Positions 847 through 32,019 of a stretch of 35,163 nucleotides of DNA are shown piece after piece. Both the position numbers and the translations under genes were made by a program. Origin of the DNA: a virus (taxonomy: Duplodnaviria; Caudoviricetes); IMG/VR virus record IMGVR_UViG_3300014208_001455, positions 1 to 35,163 of that record, one strand, 5' to 3'. Numbering within the stretch: position 1 is the stretch's first letter; the number at the start of each line of letters is the position of its first letter. The notes beneath the pieces were generated by a model. It was given only the letters and a program-made list of their open reading frames with translations. It did no database searches and was not told the origin of the DNA.

Positions 847-1415
847 TTCAAATGCGAGACGCCAAGGGCCGATACGGGGAGACCGTGAACGTCGTAAAGA
901 CCATCGTGGTCACGGTATTCCTCACCCTCGTCGCCCTCGGCACCATCCGTTCCATCGTCATCGCGCGCTCGCTGAATAAACAGGTCCAGGTTCCGCAGGT
1001 TGCCGCCGCTACGATCGAAGCTCCCCGGACGTGGGTCGGCCGCACGCTCACAGACGCGGAATACTACGCCATCGCCAGTTCGGACTCATACGGATTGCAT
1101 GGCGACGCCTACACGGTCGTCAAAGGCTCTGTGACGAAATACAGCCGCATCGACTCCTGCCACAACAAGAACGACAAAGGGGAGTGCATCACGGCATCAG
1201 GAAAGCCGGTCAAGCACGGGATCACGGTCGCTTGCCCACACAAGATCAAGCTCGGCACCAAGGTCGCCATCAACGGGAAGATCTACACCTGCGAGGATCG
1301 TACAGCTCGTTGGGTGCAAGCCAAATTCGGGGATACGTTCGACATCTTCGACGATAGCCATTCCGCGGCCGTGAAGTGGGGACGTCAGAATCTCAAAGTC
1401 GCCATCATGAACTAA
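834..1415 (+). CDS. Membrane-anchored 3D-domain (MltA-like) protein
   Basis: N-terminal hydrophobic helix; ITASGKPV..GITVACP..I.LGTKV.I.G..Y.CEDR..FDIF..A..WG pattern. Confidence 0.75.
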   Translation: MQRVIQMRDAKGRYGETVNVVKTIVVTVFLTLVALGTIRSIVIARSLNKQVQVPQVAAATIEAPRTWVGRTLTDAEYYAIASSDSYGLHGDAYTVVKGSVTKYSRIDSCHNKNDKGECITASGKPVKHGITVACPHKIKLGTKVAINGKIYTCEDRTARWVQAKFGDTFDIFDDSHSAAVKWGRQNLKVAIMN

Positions 1416-1425
1416 CCTCGCTCCT

Positions 1426-1602
1426 ATGAACCAAGACCCAGCTCAACGCCAAGCTCTCCGCACGCTATTCGCCAAACATTCGTACCTCAAAGGTTTCCTA
1501 GCCGCGCAGGATGAAACGATGGACAACGCGCAACAGAAGCGGGCGCAGATCGAGCGAGAGCTCAGGGCGGTAGAACGAGAAATCGAATCGGCGAAGCATT
1601 AA
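1426..1602 (+). CDS. Small coiled-coil hypothetical protein (58 aa, MNQDPAQRQALRTLF...)
   Basis: Hand-translated; below ORF-track cutoff; ctATG context, fills gap. Confidence 0.6.
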   Translation: MNQDPAQRQALRTLFAKHSYLKGFLAAQDETMDNAQQKRAQIERELRAVEREIESAKH

Positions 1603-1661
1603 GTCACAAAATCTCCCCTCCTACGCCCTCCAGGCATCTGGGAGGGGAGTGCGGGCACCTT

Positions 1662-2357
1662 ATGCAATCATCATCTAAAAAATCAACGCAATTCGGTGGC
1701 TTCTGGATGATTCCAAAAGCCACGAAGGGTCTCTCACTCGGAGCTCGGTTCGTGTTTGGCATGCTTGTCACGCGTGCGAACGGGGAAAATGAGTGCTGGC
1801 CTGGTCAGATCGCTATCGCTGAAGAAATGGGCGTCAACGTGCGCACCGTTCAACGTATCCTCGACGAGCTTGTTCTCATCGGGATGATTCAGGTTGTCCG
1901 AACCGGAAAGTGCAAGACGAACATGTACCGAATCGTGGGAAATTACTTCGCCACTCAGCCGGTTGAGAAAGTGTCCACAGAGAGTGATACGACAAATTGT
2001 CGCATCACTCCAGAAGAGGAAAAAGAGGCGAGTGATACGACACCGGTGTCGTCCACTGATACGACACCCATGTCGCATCCATATATGAATAAGAACAGTA
2101 CAAAAAGAACAGTATCCCCCTTACCCCCACAAGTGGGGGGATTGGCCAGATCAAAAAAACTGAACCCGAGGGCCATGGGCACAAACCCAAGAGCGCTCAA
2201 TCCGAACTACAAGCCCGCGCAAGCAAAGAAAAAACCTTACATCGACGGGGATCCTGCCTTCCATGACGATGCCACGGACTCATGGCGGGTCAAGATTCAC
2301 ACGGGGGAGTGGAAAGAATACGCCGGCAACGTCAAGGAAAAACTGGAGTGGAGATGA
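1662..2357 (+). CDS. Phage replication initiator with N-terminal winged HTH
   Basis: CWPGQIAIAEEMGVNVRTVQRILDELVLIGMI HTH, NMYRI motif, internal iteron-like repeats, position after recombinase. Confidence 0.75.
   Translation: MQSSSKKSTQFGGFWMIPKATKGLSLGARFVFGMLVTRANGENECWPGQIAIAEEMGVNVRTVQRILDELVLIGMIQVVRTGKCKTNMYRIVGNYFATQPVEKVSTESDTTNCRITPEEEKEASDTTPVSSTDTTPMSHPYMNKNSTKRTVSPLPPQVGGLARSKKLNPRAMGTNPRALNPNYKPAQAKKKPYIDGDPAFHDDATDSWRVKIHTGEWKEYAGNVKEKLEWR
1982..2114. repeat. Putative phage origin: three GATACGACA-N3/4-TGTCG dyad repeats plus AT-rich tract
   Basis: Repeats at 1982-2010, 2030-2057, 2057-2079; AAGAACAGTA twice in following A-rich stretch. Confidence 0.7.
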
Positions 2358-2542
2358 GGTATATGAGTCAGTACACGGCAGACATGCGCGAGAAGGTGAT
2401 CCGAGCCATCCGAGCCGCACTCGCCTCAAATCCTCACTTCCTGGAGACGGGCGTCGCGGCGAAGATCATGGCGAAATACCTCATCACGCCAGACGAGATC
2501 ACGAAGGAACCACCTGGAGCGCTCGCCCTCTTTCCGCCCTGA
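2354..2542 (+). CDS. Hypothetical protein
   Basis: ATGA overlap with initiator stop codon. Confidence 0.6.
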   Translation: MRYMSQYTADMREKVIRAIRAALASNPHFLETGVAAKIMAKYLITPDEITKEPPGALALFPP

Positions 2543-2990
2543 TACACCGAACGGTGTTGCGCACTAGCCTGCGCACAGTACGGATCACGACGCGACTCTC
2601 TGGATGGATCGAAAGATGGGCGGGGGAGGAAGACAGCCGTCAACCTCGCCTCTCCCACCTATCCCAAGCGCCCTGCGAAGGCGAAGTCCGAGCAATCGGC
2701 TAGCCCAGCGGATCAAGAGCGATGGGATGGGTGGGGGAAAGCCCGAGACGGCTCTCGCTGGTGAGGCGGCATGGCGGCGGTACCACAAGCATGGGCGCCG
2801 TCACCTGCCTCGCCAGCGGGAATGAGCACACTCGCACCTCATTTCGTACGCTCACAACACGAACAGGGCGAAAGGCAAGACGGGAACTCTTGCCGTTCGC
2901 CTCCGGTCTGAGAGCCAACCATTGCGCAAGCGGTGGAAGGACGACAAGCCTCTCAGGTCGAAGGCGGAAATAACCGCGCTCATTCGTTTC
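2543..2990 (+). ncRNA. Candidate large structured ncRNA of unknown class
   Basis: Multiple 8-17 bp helices with G-U pairs on + strand, GCAA tetraloops, no credible ORF. Confidence 0.55.
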
Positions 2991-2994
2991 TTTT

Positions 2995-3219
2995 ATGCCG
3001 AAGTTTCACGTCCATGCTCGTGTTTCTTGGCTCTGCCGACCTAAAGAAGGCAAGCCGTTTGTTTGCAAAGGGGAGATCGTTAAAATTAAGCCCGTCCTAT
3101 TTGGCGGTAAGCTCAAAGCCGTGGGTGCGTTGGTCAAGGTGTCGTCCAAGGCATACCTCCAGACCCACAAACGAAAAACAGCACTCATCCGTACCAGTAG
3201 ATTGACGCTTGTCGCTTAG
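2995..3219 (+). CDS. Hypothetical basic protein
   Basis: ttATG start, tandem arrangement with next ORFs. Confidence 0.55.
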   Translation: MPKFHVHARVSWLCRPKEGKPFVCKGEIVKIKPVLFGGKLKAVGALVKVSSKAYLQTHKRKTALIRTSRLTLVA

Positions 3220-3225
3220 GCGATC

Positions 3226-3588
3226 ATGTCAGCGTCGAAGGAGCTCGGCCGTGTGCTTGCGGTCATAGTCGTCGGGGAGCGGCGAGCACTCCTAGCTTTT
3301 CGACGCCGTGGCGTGCCCGTCGACTTCAATGCAGACGGATTCGAGGAGTGGGCCGGCGCGGTTGGTTGGACGGTCCAGATCGCCGGCCAGAGGGATGAGG
3401 AGCTCCTGCGCAACCTGAGCGACGCGTACGAGAAGTACGTCGAGTATCAGAAGCAGGAATGCTACCTCATGGCGGACGAGTGGCTTACCAAAGCCGATCG
3501 TCTCGTCAAAGCTCTCATGATGAATTCAGTGACATCATCGGAGAATACGGGCTCTATACAGGAGCTCAACAAATCAAAACAAAAATAG
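3226..3588 (+). CDS. Hypothetical protein
   Basis: 120-aa ORF closely following the previous gene. Confidence 0.6.
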   Translation: MSASKELGRVLAVIVVGERRALLAFRRRGVPVDFNADGFEEWAGAVGWTVQIAGQRDEELLRNLSDAYEKYVEYQKQECYLMADEWLTKADRLVKALMMNSVTSSENTGSIQELNKSKQK

Positions 3589-3610
3589 CATTAATTTATC
3601 AATCAAACGT

Positions 3611-3823
3611 ATGCCAGAACAACTTGAAATCAACGCAGGTAGAATCGTCGAGGAGCCAATCCGCAAACTCCTACGCAAAATTAATCAAGCGGTGGAATTG
3701 GCCGCTGAAATTTGGCCAGAGCCACCACAAGCGGCAGGAATGCCGGATCCGTGGACCATGAATCTATCCGAAATCGTAAACGCACGGATCACGCTCAAGC
3801 GGTATCAGCCGCGGAAGCAATAG
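3611..3823 (+). CDS. Hypothetical protein
   Basis: gtATG start after AT-rich spacer. Confidence 0.6.
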   Translation: MPEQLEINAGRIVEEPIRKLLRKINQAVELAAEIWPEPPQAAGMPDPWTMNLSEIVNARITLKRYQPRKQ

Positions 3824-4195
3824 CAGTAGGGCGACGCAAGTCGCTGTGAGGTGGTGATGTCGGACTGTGAGCCGAAGGGTATGGGTGAAAAACCCATTAG
3901 GGCTTCTAAGAACCCCCAGAAACGAGTGGGCCGCCAAACTGGAACTTGGATATATTTCCAAACGAATCGCGACTCGCTACAAGTCAAACCTTGTTCATCA
4001 CCTCTTCACAGCGACCTACGTCGCAATCACGTGCAGAACAGCGTAGGGAAGCGGTCGCCCCGAATGCGTGGGCTAAGGCCTAAACCAGCCTACAAATACC
4101 GTGTCTCCTGTGTGGTGCAAATCCACTACTGCACAACCTACAAACCAAGGGAGGGGGCAATCTGTCCCCACCCTTCGCGGATCAAGGAGGTCACC
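3824..4195 (+). ncRNA. Candidate structured RNA or regulatory leader
   Basis: Long-range helix 3840-3857 with ~3994-4015, GCGAC-GCAA-GTCGC, ATGGGT-GAAAA-ACCCAT and other hairpins. Confidence 0.45.
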
Positions 4196-4390
4196 ATGTA
4201 CATGTTCTTGCAGACGGGGGTCAAGGTTAAGCTCCTCAATGTGGTGTTTTGCCGCGAGACGTACGACGGTATCTGTATGCTCGCGCCGCTCAACCCCAAC
4301 TTCACCTTCGAGACGGAACGTCACGGCACTGTGAAGCTGTACCAGCTCTCGCTTCGCTGGACGGACTTGCTCGACATCAACCCGCACTAG
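4196..4390 (+). CDS. Hypothetical protein (64 aa)
   Basis: Strong SD AAGGAGGT before ATG 4196; upstream extension in ORF track unlikely. Confidence 0.6.
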   Translation: MYMFLQTGVKVKLLNVVFCRETYDGICMLAPLNPNFTFETERHGTVKLYQLSLRWTDLLDINPH

Positions 4391-4399
4391 GAGGACGGC

Positions 4400-4633
4400 A
4401 TGATCACGCTTCGCACGAAGAAGGGAATCCTCACATTCCCGCTGGACAAGGACGGGGTCGCGATTCTGCGGCTCCTCAAGCACCACGCTCCGTTCCTGGA
4501 GCTCGTGGGCAAGGCGGACACCAACACCATCCGCCTCGTTTACCTGGGCGAGATCGAGCTCCCCCACGGGGAAGCTCCTGCGCCTCCCAACGCGGATCGC
4601 GCACAGCTCGCCAAGCTCGGCGGGACGTCGTAA
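4400..4633 (+). CDS. Hypothetical protein (77 aa)
   Basis: SD AGGAGG before ATG. Confidence 0.6.
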   Translation: MITLRTKKGILTFPLDKDGVAILRLLKHHAPFLELVGKADTNTIRLVYLGEIELPHGEAPAPPNADRAQLAKLGGTS

Positions 4634-4728
4634 CCACCGCCCTCTACCATAAGGGCGAAACGGAAGGCACGGGTGACCGCGTAAAAGGTTTGGCCATTCC
4701 TTCTCAAAATGGCCACCTTCTCTCACTT

Positions 4729-5028
4729 ATGAACATCAAAATCTATACAGCGCCAGGATGTAAGCATTGCCACGAGCTCCGCTTGTTTCTCAAGAGCCGA
4801 GGACTGCGCTTTTTCGAGCTCAGCACGAATCAACTCAAAAACGCCAAGGAGGCGGTCAGAATATCCGGACAGATGGGCGTGCCCGTGATCGACATCAACG
4901 GGCAGATTATCGTGGGATGGAATCAGGCGGTTTTGGACAAGGCGATCAGCTTGGGGAGGCACCCGATCATGAACGGTGCGCTGGATGAATTGGCGGATAA
5001 GGAATTCGGAGATGGAAAGAATTCGTAA
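4729..5028 (+). CDS. Glutaredoxin/NrdH-like redoxin
   Basis: IKIYTAPGCKHC (CxxC), SGQMGVPVIDING..IVGW. Confidence 0.9.
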   Translation: MNIKIYTAPGCKHCHELRLFLKSRGLRFFELSTNQLKNAKEAVRISGQMGVPVIDINGQIIVGWNQAVLDKAISLGRHPIMNGALDELADKEFGDGKNS

Positions 5029-5466
5029 ATGGCTATGAAAGTCCTTTTTCTTGACATTGATGGCGTCGTGAATTGTAAAACAACGACACAGCGCCATCGT
5101 GGATATATCGGCATTGATCCCTACATGGCGTTTCTGGTGGGGAGAATTGTCGAAGCAACTGATGCAAAGGTCGTCCTCTCTTCAAGCTGGCGATATTTCG
5201 AGGATGGCCGTGCAGAGGTAGAGCGGCAGGTGGTGAAATGCATCGATGTGACGCCAAATCTTCCGATTTCTGGCGGAGTCGAAGCGTGCGAACGCGGGAA
5301 TGAGATTCAAGCGTGGCTCACAGAACATCCAGAGGTCGAACGCTACGCAATCCTCGACGATGACAGCGACTTTCTGCCAGATCAGCCGCTTTTCAAGACC
5401 TCCTGGGAGACGGGGCTGACGGAGGAGATTGCGGGAAGGGTTATTCAATTTCTAAACGTAAAATAG
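5029..5466 (+). CDS. HAD-superfamily phosphatase resembling the HAD domain of Swiss-Army-Knife RNA-repair proteins
   Basis: VLFLDIDGVVN, VVLSSSWR, RGNEIQAWL, YAILDDD motifs. Confidence 0.8.
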   Translation: MAMKVLFLDIDGVVNCKTTTQRHRGYIGIDPYMAFLVGRIVEATDAKVVLSSSWRYFEDGRAEVERQVVKCIDVTPNLPISGGVEACERGNEIQAWLTEHPEVERYAILDDDSDFLPDQPLFKTSWETGLTEEIAGRVIQFLNVK

Positions 5467-5468
5467 CT

Positions 5469-5630
5469 ATGTGGTTCAAATATGTGTTGATTGTATTTTG
5501 GATAATCGGTGCGATCGGCACCATCAGCATGATAGGCGATGAGCGCAAGCCAATAACAAAGGGAATGGCTATCGCTACGGTAGCGGTGACCGTTGCTATG
5601 ATTTTTGGAATCATCAATTACTGGAAATAA
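5469..5630 (+). CDS. Small two-TM membrane protein (53 aa, MWFKYVLIVFWII...)
   Basis: Hand-translated; fills the gap between neighbours; two hydrophobic helices. Confidence 0.65.
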   Translation: MWFKYVLIVFWIIGAIGTISMIGDERKPITKGMAIATVAVTVAMIFGIINYWK

Positions 5631-5631
5631 T

Positions 5632-5889
5632 ATGCCCATGATTTACATGCCGAGCACCACGGCCAACCTCAAAGAGATGGTGACGCAAGAGGATAGTGTC
5701 CTTGCCGCATTTATGAAGCGCGTGTGGCAGGCGCGCATCTTTGGGCAAAAAGCGTCTATGCTCCCCGCGAAGATGCGCACGAAGGCGATAAACGGGCAGG
5801 TACGGCTCGATGTGGCAGAGGCGCCGGAACCGACGGCGGAGGACGTGGCGAAATTCAGGGAGGAGCTTAAGAAGATGGGGGAGAAATGA
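5632..5889 (+). CDS. Hypothetical protein
   Basis: tATG start 1 nt after previous stop. Confidence 0.6.
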   Translation: MPMIYMPSTTANLKEMVTQEDSVLAAFMKRVWQARIFGQKASMLPAKMRTKAINGQVRLDVAEAPEPTAEDVAKFREELKKMGEK

Positions 5890-5890
5890 T

Positions 5891-7138
5891 ATGCAACAAG
5901 TTATCTCAACCGAAAAAATCCCTATTAAGGTCTGGCTTGATGAAGCAGAACCAGGCGCGATGGACCAAATAAAGCACATCGCGAATCTTCCATTCGCTTT
6001 CCACCACGTCGCCATCATGCCCGACACACATCAGGGCTATGGGATGCCGATCGGTGGTATCCTTGCGACGGAAGGCGTTGTAATTCCGAATGCTGTCGGT
6101 GTTGATATTGGATGTGGAATGTGCGCGGTCAAGACAAACATCACCGACATCACAAAGGATAAGGTCAAGGCGATTCTAGGATGCATCCGTGCGCTCGTAC
6201 CCGTTGGCTTTGAGCATCACAAAGAAAAGCAGGACGAGATGCTCATGCCAAGGGCTGATACTGTAAGTGGACTCAATAATGCAACGCCAGACATAACAAG
6301 GTATCCAGTGATCCATAATGAATATAATTCAGCTCTCAAACAGCTCGGCACGCTTGGCGGTGGTAATCATTTCATCGAATTGCAAAAAGGGAGTGACGGT
6401 TTCGTATGGATCATGATCCATTCTGGCTCGCGTAACCTTGGAAAGAAGGTCGCGGATCATTACAACAAGCTCGCCGTTGAGCTGAACGAACAATGGCATA
6501 CCTCTGTACCGAAGTCATGGGAATTGGCGTTTTTACCGCTTGATAGCGAAGAAGGCGTCGCGTACATGCGTGAGATGCAATACTGCGTAGACTTCGCGCT
6601 TGCCAACCGCAAGCTCATGATGGAACGGTGCAAGCAAGCGATAAGAGAGGTAATCCCGTTGCATCCGTCTATATCCAATCCAGGTGGATTAAGCACATCA
6701 GATCTTCGTGAAACATCTTTTGACCCGATGATTAACATTGCCCACAACTATGCACGTTTGGAAAACCATTTTGGAAAGAATGTTCTGGTGCATCGAAAAG
6801 GGGCTACATCGGCTAGACAGGGGGAGACGGGACTTATTCCGGGGTCCATGGGGTCGAAGTCATTTGTGGTGGTGGGTAAGGGTAATCCTGAATCCTTTAC
6901 GTCTTGCTCTCATGGCGCTGGGAGACGCCTTGGTCGCAAAGATGCGTGTAGAAAACTCAACCTTGAGGAACAGAAAGCTTTGATGGACGCACAGGGCATT
7001 ATTCATGGTATGCGTAATCAAGACGATCTGGAAGAGGCTCCGGGAGCGTATAAACCGATTGAGGAGGTAATGGCGTTTCAAAAGGACTTGGTGGACATCG
7101 TCGTCGAATTATCGCCGCTTGGCGTTGTGAAAGGATGA
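5891..7138 (+). CDS. rtcB: RtcB-family RNA ligase
   Basis: MPDTHQGYGMPIGG, GVDIGCG, LGTLGGGNHF, HSGSR, HNY, HRKGA, IPGSMG, SCSHGAGR, EAPGAYK. Confidence 0.96.
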   Translation: MQQVISTEKIPIKVWLDEAEPGAMDQIKHIANLPFAFHHVAIMPDTHQGYGMPIGGILATEGVVIPNAVGVDIGCGMCAVKTNITDITKDKVKAILGCIRALVPVGFEHHKEKQDEMLMPRADTVSGLNNATPDITRYPVIHNEYNSALKQLGTLGGGNHFIELQKGSDGFVWIMIHSGSRNLGKKVADHYNKLAVELNEQWHTSVPKSWELAFLPLDSEEGVAYMREMQYCVDFALANRKLMMERCKQAIREVIPLHPSISNPGGLSTSDLRETSFDPMINIAHNYARLENHFGKNVLVHRKGATSARQGETGLIPGSMGSKSFVVVGKGNPESFTSCSHGAGRRLGRKDACRKLNLEEQKALMDAQGIIHGMRNQDDLEEAPGAYKPIEEVMAFQKDLVDIVVELSPLGVVKG

Positions 7139-17341: not shown

Positions 17342-19384
17342 ATGCAAAGCAAAAATTACGCAGGCCCACCATTTCGTGACGCGCAGTTTGCGCGGAATGC
17401 CAATATCGCCCAGAACAAAATCACGGCGAATACAGACGCAAAGATCATGGTCTGTGGGGATTCGATTACCGCACAAGGTGCGACTTCTACTGATGAACGC
17501 GCGGCGGGTTATCGCTACTGGCTACAGAAATTACTTCGTCTTCATCGTGGAAATATCACATGGCTCGGGACAAAGGACATCGGCCCGCAAGTATCAACGG
17601 GGCCATACGCCACGCCCGGCAATGTCATGATGTGGTCGTGGAGATGCGCCGCTCTTGGTGGATACACCATTCAGCAAATTGACACGCTCGCTACTGAGGC
17701 AGAGGCCGCGCAAGGAGCCGCTGACGTGTACACATTGCTTGCGGGAACCAACAACTACGGATCCGATACGGCCGCGCAGGCGGTGGCCAGAATCGTGACA
17801 TTTATTCAGAATCGCATTGCCGCGAATCCTGATTGTGTTGTGCTCGTTGGCACGCTGTTGCCGGCAGGCCCTCCCGTATCCGGATACGCGACAAAACAGA
17901 CGTATCTTGACGCGTTCAATGCCGCGTTACCGGCCGCGCTTGCTCCATACCCGCAGGCACGCATCGTGCCCGTTGGTACGATCATGACGAAGGCGCATCT
18001 GATTGATGGCATCCATCCAAACATTCAAGGAGAGGGCATCATCGGCAAAGCGTTCGCAGACGCCATCCTGAACGTGATTGGCATCTCTGGGGCACCCTTT
18101 CCACGTCCGCTCACGCGTCGCGTACCCGTTAGCCGACTGTCTGTCAGTGGAACTCAGCAGGCCTATTTTTACGACGCGACAAATGCCTCCGGTCTTTTTC
18201 CAACGGCTGGAGAATCGTGGTATGCCCTCATTAAAATCAGACCTTCGGATTTATCCGTTAGCGGTCGACTTATTTTCGGATTTGGAGGTTCAACAACAGG
18301 CATTTTGCTCATGAGCACTACGGCATCTGGCGGTCCGGATGCACGATCATTGCAGGTCTATCATTACGTTGGCCCTACTGCGTATTCAGGACTCAGTGAA
18401 GCGTTGCGCGTGGATCGCGTGCACGCCATTGGCTTGGCCTATGATGCGGACTTGGGAGAAATGACCGTCTACTGTTTGCGCGAAGGTGACGATGGGAAAC
18501 CGGTGACATTCTGCGTCGCGCAAGGAACGGGCGTGCCCGAGCTAGAACCCGGATTCACCTACATGTCCGTCGGCTATCTTTACGGAGTCTCTGGCGTTCC
18601 AGGAACGCGTGGAGATTTTGTCTTCGGCCGAGGCGTTAAGATCACACCTGATGAGATGGAAGCCTATTACATGGAGGGCGCAATTCCGCAGAGTGCAACA
18701 GCATACTATCCATTAAACGAGGGCACGGGCACTTCCCTGAATCCATCTCCGTCTTTTGCCGGACTCCTTCCGGTTGGCGTCACAACCGCCGCGTGGACAA
18801 CCGCGGGCGTTCCTGTCGAGCCTTGGGATCGTGAAGAAGAGGAACGCAAAAAGGTTTTAGCTGACGCATGGGAGGATTTGCGTTTCCCTGCATCGCAGGC
18901 CATGGTCAACCCTGTTACAGCAAAACCGGATCAGGGAGTATTTACGGATGGCATCGAGACGCTTTTATTTGACCCGGATGCGGATGAGAGCGTATTCATC
19001 CATGTCCAGATGCCGCATGCGTGGAAGCTCGGATCGAGCATCGTGCCGCACGTACACTGGTCACCGATGACCACGCATACGGGCGTCGTTCGTTGGGGTT
19101 TGGAATACACGGTCGCATTGAAAGATGGGACATTCGGGGCGTCGACGACGATCTATATCGAGGATGCCGGGGATGGCGTTGCTCTCAAGCATCAAACAGC
19201 GAATTTCGCGGCAATCGTGATGTCGGCCTATGCGGGACTGTCGGTGATGCTGATGTGTCGTCTTTTCCGTGATGCCGATCACGTCAATGACACGTTTACC
19301 GGCGAGGCCGCCTTGCTGGAATTCGACATCCACTACGTGCGCGATGACAACGGTTCGCAATCTGCCACAGCGAAATACGCATAG
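17342..19384 (+). CDS. Multidomain protein: SGNH/GDSL esterase, LamG-like domain, C-terminal beta domain
   Basis: GDSIT, GTNN, DGIHP catalytic blocks; YYPLNEGTG LamG-type motif. Confidence 0.8.
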   Translation: MQSKNYAGPPFRDAQFARNANIAQNKITANTDAKIMVCGDSITAQGATSTDERAAGYRYWLQKLLRLHRGNITWLGTKDIGPQVSTGPYATPGNVMMWSWRCAALGGYTIQQIDTLATEAEAAQGAADVYTLLAGTNNYGSDTAAQAVARIVTFIQNRIAANPDCVVLVGTLLPAGPPVSGYATKQTYLDAFNAALPAALAPYPQARIVPVGTIMTKAHLIDGIHPNIQGEGIIGKAFADAILNVIGISGAPFPRPLTRRVPVSRLSVSGTQQAYFYDATNASGLFPTAGESWYALIKIRPSDLSVSGRLIFGFGGSTTGILLMSTTASGGPDARSLQVYHYVGPTAYSGLSEALRVDRVHAIGLAYDADLGEMTVYCLREGDDGKPVTFCVAQGTGVPELEPGFTYMSVGYLYGVSGVPGTRGDFVFGRGVKITPDEMEAYYMEGAIPQSATAYYPLNEGTGTSLNPSPSFAGLLPVGVTTAAWTTAGVPVEPWDREEEERKKVLADAWEDLRFPASQAMVNPVTAKPDQGVFTDGIETLLFDPDADESVFIHVQMPHAWKLGSSIVPHVHWSPMTTHTGVVRWGLEYTVALKDGTFGASTTIYIEDAGDGVALKHQTANFAAIVMSAYAGLSVMLMCRLFRDADHVNDTFTGEAALLEFDIHYVRDDNGSQSATAKYA

Positions 19385-19920: not shown

Positions 19921-20988
19921 ATGAGCACCACAGACGACAAATACGAGCCAAAGACAGGGCTCCGGCCTGATCCTCTCGATGAGAGAGACTTCTTGTATGA
20001 GGACGTCATGGGTGCTGATGCGGGTGATCTTGATTGGGAGAAGGGGTTCAACGTCTACGAAGAGCTTGGCCTGCCATACCCGCACCAAGATCAGGGGAGA
20101 AGCTATTCCTGCGTGGCGCAGTCCACGGCAGAGCATACGCGCGTGTGGTGGAAGAAGCTGACAGGGGAGGATATTGAATTCTCGCCTCGCTTTATTTACC
20201 CGCAAATCGCCCTCGGCTATGCAGGTGGGGCGTATTTGCGCGACGGCGTGCATCTTGTGGCATCGAAGGGCGTATGCGATGAGGGGGAGCTTCCGTCGTA
20301 CGAGAATGGCCAGCCACCGTCCGAGGATTTTATGTTCAACGCCGCGGCGATCACGCCGGACATCCTGGCGAAGGCACTTCCGCACGATCGCTTCAACTTT
20401 CGCGTGATTCTAGGAGGTACGGATGACATTTCGCTCTTTGCGCACGCGATACGATTCAACTGTGGCGTCGTAGGTGGATTCAAGGGCACGAATATCGGAT
20501 GGTGCAGGTCTGAGGTGCGCGCACCACAAGCAGGGGAGGACATATGGGGGCACGCGGTACTGCTTTGCGCGTATGGGATGCACGAGGGGAAGCGATGCAT
20601 GTTCACGCGCAACTCATGGGGAGGGCGTTACACGATCCAGGAGGGGCGCTGGAAGGGATTGCAGGCCATCCCGGAGGAATACTTCACCGCAGGCGTACAG
20701 ACAGCCGTGGGCGAGGCAAAAGGCGTGTACGTGTTTAATTCTTGGGTGCTCGTGCCAGACTCAAAGCTGACACCGGCTCAAAAAACTATGGACTTCTTGA
20801 AAAAGAATGAGGGCAAGCTCGTGCAGGACTCGCAGGGGAGCGGCGCTTTCGGCATCGTGAAGGGTGGAAAGATCCTCGTGGCGAGCAAGGAGCGCGTGGC
20901 GGAGCTTCTCGCGACGTACATCGTGCGAAAAGAGGGCGTGGGCGTGGCACGAGAGATGTGGGCAGACGCGCCGAAGGAGGATTTTTGA
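19921..20988 (+). CDS. Papain-family (C1) cysteine peptidase in endolysin position
   Basis: DQGRSYSCVAQ (Cys), FSPRFIY, GHAV (His), RNSWG (Asn). Confidence 0.88.
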   Translation: MSTTDDKYEPKTGLRPDPLDERDFLYEDVMGADAGDLDWEKGFNVYEELGLPYPHQDQGRSYSCVAQSTAEHTRVWWKKLTGEDIEFSPRFIYPQIALGYAGGAYLRDGVHLVASKGVCDEGELPSYENGQPPSEDFMFNAAAITPDILAKALPHDRFNFRVILGGTDDISLFAHAIRFNCGVVGGFKGTNIGWCRSEVRAPQAGEDIWGHAVLLCAYGMHEGKRCMFTRNSWGGRYTIQEGRWKGLQAIPEEYFTAGVQTAVGEAKGVYVFNSWVLVPDSKLTPAQKTMDFLKKNEGKLVQDSQGSGAFGIVKGGKILVASKERVAELLATYIVRKEGVGVAREMWADAPKEDF

Positions 20989-30420: not shown

Positions 30421-30465
30421 GATGGGGTTGTTCTGCCCTGGCAGAGGGGATAGGCTGTACGGACT

Positions 30466-30645
30466 ATGCCAAAACACGCTCTCAAAAAGGACGGTGTGAC
30501 GATCGTTCAAATCGTTGCAACACACGATAAAGTATTTGGACTCGGAGACGATCAGCTTGTCTATGAATGGAATCCATCATTTTGTGCTTTCTTACTTATT
30601 GAGCTCAGTGAAGAAGAGAAACGCAATCAGGAGGTGTATCTCTGA
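30466..30645 (+). CDS. Small hypothetical protein (59 aa, MPKHALKKDG...)
   Basis: Hand-translated; preceded by TTGTTC-N17-TAGGCT. Confidence 0.5.
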   Translation: MPKHALKKDGVTIVQIVATHDKVFGLGDDQLVYEWNPSFCAFLLIELSEEEKRNQEVYL

Positions 30646-30726
30646 GCACGCTGTCGAGTCGTAGCTGGGTACTTGACAACAGGGCCGACAAGTGGTTGGC
30701 TCTATCATGAAAACCAAAGATCAATC

Positions 30727-30771
30727 GCTTGTGGCCGCAAGGCCGCCCATTCATGGGGTTCTTAGACGAGC
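30727..30771 (+). ncRNA. Candidate C4-like antisense RNA core
   Basis: GCTTGT[GGCC-GCAA-GGCC]G[CCCA-TTCA-TGGG]GTTCTTAG-ACGAGC three-way junction. Confidence 0.45.
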
Positions 30772-30805
30772 AATTTCTGGGCTAGAAAATAGCCACATTT
30801 CGGCG

Positions 30806-30874
30806 TATAATATAAAAGCCGTCGACAGAAACCGCGTAGCCTAAGAACCGCGCGGGAGTATGTCGGCGGTTTTT
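30806..30874 (+). promoter_or_regulatory. Integrase -10 box and leader hairpin (attenuator-like)
   Basis: TATAAT 30806-30811; AAAAGCCGTCGACA/TGTCGGCGGTTTTT stem with CTAAGAAC loop. Confidence 0.55.
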
Positions 30875-30882
30875 GAATACTT

Positions 30883-32019
30883 ATGAGCACGAATAATTCG
30901 GAACATTTTCAGGCATTCCTCCGATGGCTCGGATGCCAGCATTCCGTGGCCACGGTTGCCAGTTATCGCAATGCGCTTGCGTCACTCATGAAATATCTCG
31001 ATGAGATTGATCGTGAACTTTTGGAGTGTAGTCTGGACGATTTTTCGAAATACATCATCTGGCTTGAAAACAAGGGCCTAAGATCCGGCACGCGCGGGCT
31101 GTACGTGACGTCCTTGAAAACGATGTGGTCATGGCTTCGCAAGCAGGGGATGGTCACGCTCGATGAGAGTATGATCCCAACGCCGAGGGTGGCGAGTGAC
31201 AGACGCTCGTATCCATTTTTGGAGCCGCACGAGTTTACGGCGCTTCTTGGGGCATTCGATGAGTTTTATCCCAAGGAACTGCGCAACAAGACGATTATTG
31301 CCTTCTTGTACGCAACAGGCGTGCGGCTTGGTGAACTTTTGAGTTTGAACGTCGATGATCTCAATCTTGAGCGCATGGTTGCGGTTGTGCGAACTTTCAA
31401 ACGCCACGATCACAAGCGTGAGATTTATTGGGATGAGGAGACCAATCGGCTTTTGGGGAAATGGTTGGAGACCCGTGCGCATGTTCTCCGGACACAGGGG
31501 AGCGGCTGTGAGGCTCTATGGGTCAGCATGGACACGTCACGCCCTCCCGCGCGCCTTGAGCGCCATTGCGTGCAAAAGCTCTTTCGTGCGCTTCGTAAAC
31601 AGCTCGGCATGGATAAGCCTCTCTCACCTCATTCCTGTCGCCACGGCTTCGGCTATCGTGGCGTGCGCAACGATGTGAACCTTCGATATTTGCAGGTTGC
31701 CATGGGGCACGCGAATCTCAAGAATACGATGGTGTACATGGGGTACAAAGAGAAAGAGGTCGAGGACGAGTGCCGTGCGAAGCTCCTGCCGGAAGTCGGA
31801 ACGCTATTGACGGAGTGTCGGGAGAAGAATACTATGTTTATGTATGCCAGTACCAGAAAAAATCGCTCGAAATTCGAGCATAGTCCGCCAATTCGAAAGA
31901 GGCCTTTCTTACAGAGAAATAGCCAAGATTCAGGGCCTTCACGTAAAAACCGTTTGGGACATTATTCAACGAGACCAAGAACGGAAGAAGAAAAAAGCGT
32001 TGTAATGACGGGAGTTTGA
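30883..32019 (+). CDS. int: Tyrosine recombinase/integrase (XerC/D-like)
   Basis: SAM-like N-terminus, LYATGVRLGEL, PHSCRH, MGHANLKNTMVY. Confidence 0.93.
   Translation: MSTNNSEHFQAFLRWLGCQHSVATVASYRNALASLMKYLDEIDRELLECSLDDFSKYIIWLENKGLRSGTRGLYVTSLKTMWSWLRKQGMVTLDESMIPTPRVASDRRSYPFLEPHEFTALLGAFDEFYPKELRNKTIIAFLYATGVRLGELLSLNVDDLNLERMVAVVRTFKRHDHKREIYWDEETNRLLGKWLETRAHVLRTQGSGCEALWVSMDTSRPPARLERHCVQKLFRALRKQLGMDKPLSPHSCRHGFGYRGVRNDVNLRYLQVAMGHANLKNTMVYMGYKEKEVEDECRAKLLPEVGTLLTECREKNTMFMYASTRKNRSKFEHSPPIRKRPFLQRNSQDSGPSRKNRLGHYSTRPRTEEEKSVVMTGV
31807..31835 (+). promoter_or_regulatory. Sigma70-type promoter inside integrase 3' end
   Basis: TTGACG-N17-TACTAT, 8 nt before ATG 31844. Confidence 0.6.
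31844..32005 (+). CDS. Small HTH DNA-binding protein (53 aa) nested in +1 frame of integrase
   Basis: MPVPEKIARNSSIVRQFERGLSYREIAKIQGLHVKTVWDIIQRDQERKKKKAL; classic HTH pattern. Confidence 0.75.
   Translation: MPVPEKIARNSSIVRQFERGLSYREIAKIQGLHVKTVWDIIQRDQERKKKKAL

Follow-up and report, generated by a model that had tools for sequence, protein, structure and literature searches.

GOLLD and ROOL are prophage-encoded RNAs, often found near tRNA islands, and they are described, together with OLE, as having a covariation-supported structure with multiple pseudoknots and as assembling into RNA-only oligomers; GOLLD often exceeds 800 nt, and the covariance models of all three belong to Rfam (PMC12286853). 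The bacterial Y RNAs (YrlA) lie within about 4 kb of a Ro60/TROVE gene and carry tRNA-like T and D stem-loops (PMC4201824). The parts of phage RNA repair named in PMC7824862 are RtcB, RlaP, phosphoesterases and TROVE proteins with a tRNA-like partner.

The current study concerns a stretch of 35,163 nucleotides (the window), which corresponds to G000:C6:15988-51150 of a 1.23-Mb, 97% complete genome whose relatives measure 0.7-1.6 Mb. The ribosomal protein uL30 was not found in this genome and is present in 13 of 14 control genomes; from the genome sizes and the missing uL30, the host is probably a member of the CPR (Patescibacteria). To our knowledge, prophages are rare in such small-genome (CPR-type) bacteria, and little has been described of the non-coding RNAs that they carry. 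An earlier reading of the letters alone (the original prediction) had proposed a densely structured non-coding segment at 2543-2990. This stretch is like GOLLD and ROOL (PMC12286853) in being a large and highly structured non-coding part of a prophage with a tRNA-like element nearby. Unlike them, it has no match to their Rfam models at E<=10, is shorter (370-450 nt), has a single representative and abuts a start codon; and whereas pseudoknots and kissing loops are part of the description of GOLLD and ROOL, the stretch is known from the predicted secondary structure of one sequence.

A prophage with RNA-repair genes

The window is a siphovirus-type prophage, the recognised genes of which all lie on the + strand. 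Besides glutaredoxin, terminase, portal, capsid and tail genes, it contains the following features:

1-846, + strand: Bet/RecT
1662-2357, + strand: replication initiator (O-like; PF13730, PHROG replication initiation families)
2995-3219, + strand: 74-aa basic protein of an unnamed family, with a predicted SH3/Tudor/KOW-type beta barrel
3824-4195, + strand: second structured non-coding RNA candidate (z -4.97), ~830 nt downstream of the first
5029-5466, + strand: HAD_SAK_2 phosphatase of the Swiss Army Knife RNA repair type (PF18143, E 2e-27)
5810-7138, + strand: RtcB RNA ligase (PF01139, E 4e-111; phrog_1075), the true start of which is probably at about 5891
30883-32019, + strand: integrase

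The HAD_SAK_2 and RtcB genes (5029-7138) stand directly before terminase in this small prophage of a probable CPR host. By eye, the genes for host ribosomal proteins stop a few hundred bases short of the window, and a comparison of C6:15201-16000 with the contig beyond 40000 revealed no att repeat of at least 12 nt. A strong hairpin lies at 1611-1640, just upstream of the start codon of the initiator (z -5.7 for its folding window), and the tail gene block encodes a GDSL lipase-domain protein and a weak papain-like match (17342-19384 and 19921-20988).

Fold, coding status and strand of the stretch

The stretch 2543-2990 folds at -209 kcal/mol, with a z of -6.91 on the + strand that none of 100 dinucleotide shuffles equalled, against -3.48 for the minus strand in the same shuffle folding. 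It is also the lowest of 76 non-overlapping 450-nt tiles, which covered the window up to its last ~670 nt (z -6.5 with a fixed standard deviation; runner-up -3.4), and the dense structure that had been foreseen is thus confirmed. The second-lowest tile, 30443-30892 (z -3.4), is non-coding and lies before the integrase gene. The signal is confined to 2626-2994, so the extent first given stands for three domains and falls away for the 5' spacer, which is at shuffle level. None of the seven alternative ORFs overlapping the stretch occurs in a collection of 15 billion proteins, in which both flanking ORFs (2363-2542 and 2995-3219) are present, in agreement with the non-coding status originally proposed. 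One DNA run, probably the source data, showed no variant across the stretch, and no RNA run containing it was found. We conclude that this non-coding stretch of 370-450 nt has a predicted fold which is very much stabler than chance and that the structure is real; as an RNA it is a candidate new one with a single representative. Its parts are as follows:

2543-2625, + strand: 5' spacer after the stop of ORF 2363-2542, with hairpins 2544-2557 and 2558-2575 (z +0.6); it may or may not be part of the RNA
2626-2750, + strand: arm A (z -4.1), with pair probabilities mostly 0.9-1.0
2751-2821, + strand: arm B (z -5.7), a 17-bp helix 2753-2769/2805-2821 (3 G-U) enclosing an 8-bp helix 2772-2779/2796-2803
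2820-2985, + strand: 3' multibranch domain of three arms with an 8-bp closing helix 2820-2827/2978-2985 (z -4.6 for 2820-2994)
2986-2994, + strand: U-rich tract separating the closing helix from the start codon (G, then 7 T in 8 nt), unpaired with P 0.96-1.0; a candidate 3' end or termination tract

Arm A consists of a small hairpin (2626-2647) that has an internal loop of the 2x2 AA/AA type, a 16-bp helix 2651-2666/2723-2738 (2 G-U) carrying an interrupted stem with a GCAA tetraloop on 2688-2691/2696-2699, and a final hairpin at 2740-2753. The 3' domain contains the helices 2874-2880/2888-2894 and 2904-2914/2950-2960, and one of its arms has an AA/AA loop and a GCAA tetraloop on 2919-2925/2930-2936. 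The 16-bp helix of arm A, both helices of arm B, the closing helix and both tetraloops were found where the original prediction had placed them. Of the two further arms that it had drawn within the 3' domain (2867-2880/2888-2901 and 2899-2914/2950-2965), the cores are present, but the full forms are mutually exclusive because they share 2896-2902. This segment has competing partners, pairing with 2962-2968 in the full-length RNA (P 0.95) and with 2866-2872 in shorter transcripts (P 0.88-0.99). A second rivalry concerns the closing helix, which reaches P 0.96-0.99 once the transcript extends to 2986, the U-rich tract staying unpaired, and whose 5' side (2819-2826) pairs with 2838-2845 at some shorter transcript lengths (P 0.69-0.71). 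The switch suggested at the 5' end, between 2616-2630 and 2645-2663, is transient at best: a helix 2615-2629/2649-2663 is possible on paper and has P 0.42 with the transcript end at 2665, but P <=0.07 thereafter and 0 once 2730 is transcribed.

The ensemble contains no confident helix between the three domains, and arms A and B are long, near-perfect hairpins, in a part of the window where other hairpin-rich windows occur at 1576-1725, 3451-3600 and 3676-3825. The stretch could therefore be a cluster of unrelated elements, with arms A and B as RNase III-type processing stems or mRNA-stabilising stems beside a separate 3' element of 170 nt. However, the three domains abut without spacers and are jointly the sole strong outlier among the 76 tiles, and we regard such a cluster as rather unlikely.

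The imperfections of the helices had been described as mostly G-U on the + strand. This is true of the two long helices, in which all four interruptions are G-U, but not overall, as a strand-neutral count over 10 helices gives 8 G-U, 3 A-C and 8 other interruptions. The G-U lean supports selection on the + strand, from a small sample. Folding of the stretch as single-stranded DNA is asymmetric in the same direction (z -4.8 on the + strand vs -3.3 on the - strand), and the G-U lean and strand bias therefore favour the + strand more than they prove an RNA.

Relation to described RNA families and search for homologs

Nothing in the whole window reaches an Rfam gathering score. The region 2300-3300 gave four weak matches at E<=10, with no GOLLD, ROOL, OLE, YrlA, ribozyme or intron family among them, and the best resemblance, to c-di-GMP-I-GGC (RF03167) at 2905-2954, has 16.8 bits (E 0.47), below the threshold of 59. 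Like that riboswitch, the weak match surrounds a GNRA-capped hairpin upstream of a gene; we reject the c-di-GMP-I assignment on this score and because the second stem of the two-stem aptamer is missing. The original prediction could match the stretch to no named class, and this agrees with the Rfam result: a strongly folded non-coding element of the + strand, surrounded by prophage genes, belongs to no Rfam family at threshold. A SAH reading was rejected as well. A copy of RNase P RNA or tmRNA was likewise rejected, as the matches to RF00010 and RF00023 over threshold are confined to other contigs (C3, C4) and are the host's own. The host RNase P RNA match (G000:C3:30320-30827) spans 508 nt against a model of 367 positions, which indicates large insertions.

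Hammerhead, group I and group II intron models have no match at E<=10, and the hammerhead motif CUGANGA and the group II intron motif GUGYG are both absent from 2543-2994. These results make it very improbable that the stretch is a ribozyme which cleaves or splices itself and has its ends joined by the RtcB of the phage, a reading that draws on the presence of RtcB and the HAD phosphatase 2-3 kb downstream and on the ability of RtcB to join 2',3'-cyclic phosphate ends (PMC7824862).

The resemblance to YrlA (PMC4201824) lies in an RNA-repair neighbourhood with RtcB, in three copies of GNCGAAN0-1G and in a Ro60 gene beside the corresponding position of another locus (L155, below). With 35 occurrences of this motif on the + strand of the window, three copies in the stretch mean little. 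Unlike the setting of YrlA, the 97% complete genome has no match to PF05731 (TROVE/Ro60), and 2543-2994 contains neither a T-loop motif nor T- and D-like arms. As the genome has no TROVE gene, the reading as a Y RNA fails the adjacency set out in that source, and it was rejected, YrlA having no Rfam match in the stretch either.

No homolog of the RNA was found by blastn of 50,697 phage records, in 72,556 plasmids, in 400 class genomes (0/400), in seven class-level Bet regions or in a phage with a 51% identical portal; of 100 related genomes, 18 gave merely matches of 18-40 nt (E 0.006-0.08). Single-sequence structure models (R3 and R2) each matched 0 of 120 relatives. Structure models applied to 95 sources (1.22 Mb) returned as best non-self matches L077 (E 0.011) and L047 (E 0.06), both within long open frames, and nhmmer over 92 loci returned as its best L033 (E 0.03-0.06), inside a 220-aa ORF. 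Three exact patterns had 2, 16 and 0 matches in viral contigs, none of which extends. Relatives of Bet are 40-53% identical over the alignment, the closest at only about 46%, and the replication initiator has one weak relative besides itself. By these sequence comparisons, the phage is one without a close relative in the collections, for which the searches are weak at reaching remote homologs, and the blank does not make the RNA unique. With no homolog to align and test for covariation, the possibly new phage ncRNA of the original prediction stays a candidate. No description of the RNA or of its gene link was found in the literature searched, and motif collections outside Rfam (e.g. the supplements of ncRNA screens) could hold a match.

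The downstream gene and a proposed leader function

The ORF at 2995-3219 starts on the base directly after the U-rich tract, and no Shine-Dalgarno sequence precedes it. A search of 1.84 billion representatives returned 19 further proteins of its family at E<=0.001, of which 11 relatives of 74-83 aa were aligned and eight longer ones excluded; several of the contigs that encode relatives are 19-45 kb long. Short members match no Pfam family at cut-off, and one member has a sub-threshold match to Phage_ProQ_C_like (E 0.04). The AF2 model of the 74-aa protein is a small beta barrel (pLDDT 89.5), for which Foldseek found nothing in the PDB at E<=0.001 and one unnamed viral protein; the Atlas holds unnamed clusters of 73-75 aa at 0.92-0.93. 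A wide structure search (VIA) returned Tudor, chromo, CAP-Gly and KOW domains, including those of NusG and Spt5, at Z 6-7.8 and none at 8 or above, values which denote a common fold and establish no function. From the modelled fold, the protein is a candidate RNA-binding partner, and RNA binding is plausible. It is like the T4 GoF family of LSm-like proteins, which are early proteins of phages, small beta barrels for which an action on RNA has been proposed; no sequence link to GoF emerged, and the abstract of PMC12152347 mentions no linked structured RNA.

A back-translated family pattern gave 46 matches, of which 43 were dropped as non-members, leaving the window's own contig (L154) and two outside loci, L155 and L177. 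Two weakly scoring candidates, L149 and L159, were rejected as a frame that continues past the end of a resolvase-like gene. A search for more loci of the 74-aa family found none in 400 phylum genomes or in another 300 genomes from the class to which G825 belongs, and nothing credible in the phage records. In all three loci, a structured non-coding stretch lies directly upstream of the family gene (300-390 nt in the outside loci, n=2), and RNA-repair-type genes flank that gene: HAD_SAK_2 and RtcB here, Ro60 (vWA) and RlaP in L155, and a calcineurin-like phosphoesterase in L177. The stretch was originally described by its position after the replication genes, but the comparison of the loci ties this slot instead to the downstream 74-aa gene and the RNA-repair genes.

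In L177, which lies in a prophage that has a 3D-like gene in common with the phage of the window (37% identity), the calcineurin-like phosphoesterase gene is followed by a gap of 297 nt (3135-3432, - strand) and then by the family gene. The gap is rod-like, with a z of -6.7 (200 shuffles) or -9.4 (20 shuffles) and little strand bias (-6.7 vs -5.6), and it is the most structured of nine gaps of at least 200 nt in the prophage region, two others of which reach z -3. It has a terminator-like hairpin followed by 7 U, the 5' arm of which is captured by an upstream complement at equilibrium in a terminator/antiterminator layout, and an embedded promoter-like hexamer pair with 19-nt spacing; the element has no match in Rfam. 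In L155 the order is Ro60 (vWA), a 390-nt gap (736-1126, - strand; z -3.0), the 74-aa family gene and RlaP. This gap contains a tRNA-like element and a multibranch element, with no U-tract after the closing helix. The tRNA-like RNA, with an extra hairpin in the D-loop, an expanded anticodon loop, the normal D-then-T order and no Rfam match, is possibly an unrecognised partner RNA of Ro60. The three upstream RNAs show no detectable homology to one another: the comparison of the first RNA with L177 was matched in score by 32 of 200 shuffles, and those with the parts of L155 by 94 and 108 of 200, and the structure models found nothing credible in either locus.

The loci also bear on a reading at the DNA level, in which the stretch would be a replication element downstream of the initiator gene, namely a single-strand origin or a hairpin signal on the leading or lagging strand. 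The stretch follows the initiator gene by 190 nt and has the above-mentioned asymmetry as single-stranded DNA, but its z as RNA is the stronger. Moreover, the structured slot stays with the downstream gene from locus to locus, and neither in L177 nor in L155 is there an initiator gene next to it. Lambdoid origins lie inside the initiator gene, at internal repeats, and the initiator gene of the window has its own direct and inverted repeats at about 1982-2064, with a self-complementary match at 1982-2010 and a minus-strand z of -7.1 at 1951-2100; these are likely to be the origin iterons. We therefore give little credence to a replication element.

We propose, with a probability of roughly 35%, that 2626-2994 is a three-domain RNA, as predicted by folding, which serves as a cis-acting leader or attenuator of the gene at 2995. 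This proposal draws on the fold and its strand bias, on the lack of any called gene over the stretch and on the U-tract that ends on the base before the ATG. It draws further on the competition between a closing helix that dominates once the transcript is complete to 2986 and its rival, on the structured gap upstream of the same gene in L177 and L155, with a terminator-like site in L177, on the RNA-repair-type genes of all three loci and on a barrel resembling Tudor and KOW domains, those of NusG and Spt5 included. Alternative folding would decide between a stop at the U-tract before the start codon and read-through into the SH3-barrel gene and the RNA-repair cassette, steps that we infer from equilibrium folding of one sequence. 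The closing helix, directly before the U-tract, would act as a long-range terminator stem, and capture of its 5' arm by 2838-2845 would permit read-through. The choice would extend to the second RNA and the repair enzymes as well as to the SH3 gene, and it may be under feedback from the basic SH3/KOW-like protein through binding to the leader. Termination would in itself yield a discrete RNA, 370-450 nt in length. The predicted layout recalls attenuator leaders and phage antitermination RNAs such as put of HK022 in its structured leader, its competing helices and its U-tract before a phage gene cassette, with a KOW-like basic protein beside them; unlike put, the stretch is five times larger, has no canonical short terminator hairpin and does not match in sequence.

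Several observations argue against a leader. A canonical scan of 1400-5200 called neither a terminator on the + strand nor a promoter, the U-tract at 2986-2994 not being called either, and the 64 nt before the ATG fold weakly alone (-14.7). A terminator with a 150-nt loop is unusual, and 370 nt exceeds what an attenuator needs. The independent loci number only two, of which L155 lacks the U-tract and L177 has a rod with little strand bias, and the three upstream RNAs have no detectable homology, although a common partner or mechanism usually leaves a common motif. The structural matches of the 74-aa protein, finally, lie below Z 8.

In the second structured RNA, a multiloop closed by a long helix 3840-3859/3996-4015 is followed by a tRNA-like domain (about 4033-4137) that contains a T-loop-like motif at 4114. 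ARAGORN called 0 tRNA genes in the window, this tRNA-like part included, and Rfam gave nothing above threshold (poplar-1 at E 1.9). Since the ORFs between the two RNAs include real genes, the two are not one uninterrupted RNA; one of these ORFs, 3226-3588, has a relative that is 71% identical. A 14-bp complement, 2978-2991/3918-3931, is longer than in any of 83 control segments (83/83), but it does not form in the joint fold of 2540-4200, where the local closing helix wins. By eye, a 7-nt loop-loop complement joins 2850-2856 and 3866-3872. The coding regions 3395-3507 and 3691-3812, between the two RNAs, also fold strongly on the + strand (z -6.9 and -5.7 in 150-nt windows). Homology of the second RNA to the L155 element was not accepted, the similarity being weak (3/200 shuffles, in one of 24 comparisons).

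It is possible, and nearly as likely as the leader, that the stretch is a phage ncRNA which stands alone and acts in trans, of a class that is undescribed but similar in kind to GOLLD or ROOL. The two readings are not exclusive, since a terminated leader is a discrete RNA. Such an RNA would be cut out of, or terminated from, the operon transcript, might form an RNP with the SH3 barrel and could be a scaffold or nuclease decoy in an RNA-repair island shared with the second RNA. It is favoured by the presence of three domains, each stable independently, which include GNRA loops and two internal loops of the AA/AA type, by the second RNA with its tRNA-like part next to RtcB and the HAD phosphatase, by the unusually long 14-bp complement and by the tRNA-like element after the Ro60 gene in the L155 slot. 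Against it, no search returned a homolog, whereas the named large classes are widespread, no promoter was found, the 14-bp link is absent from the joint fold, and near-perfect helices of such length are a mark of processing stems or young elements more than of RNAs that are old and compact. Precedents are GOLLD and ROOL in prophages (PMC12286853) and RtcB, RlaP and TROVE with a tRNA-like partner in phage RNA repair (PMC7824862).

Beyond the proposed leader, the loci could be brought together in an undescribed phage RNP module, a suggestion that we consider unlikely. In it, the 74-aa SH3/Tudor barrel would bind the large RNA upstream, and the RNA slot would be swapped between phages while the protein is kept. 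Together with RtcB, the HAD phosphatase, RlaP or Ro60, the module would shield or repair RNA during infection, and the first RNA may dock on the second through 2978-2991/3918-3931.

No catalogued family fits the RNA, which is unclassified and newly tied to a testable protein partner. In the prophage, an unnamed gene for a predicted SH3 barrel lies between two structured, unclassified RNAs, beside RNA-repair enzymes. Orphan large phage RNAs are mostly without such a protein handle. If the link between gene and RNA is true, the 74-aa protein would provide one, both for finding more such RNAs and for a direct binding test, and the locus would represent either a new class of large RNA or a novel means by which a phage gates a counter-defence cassette.
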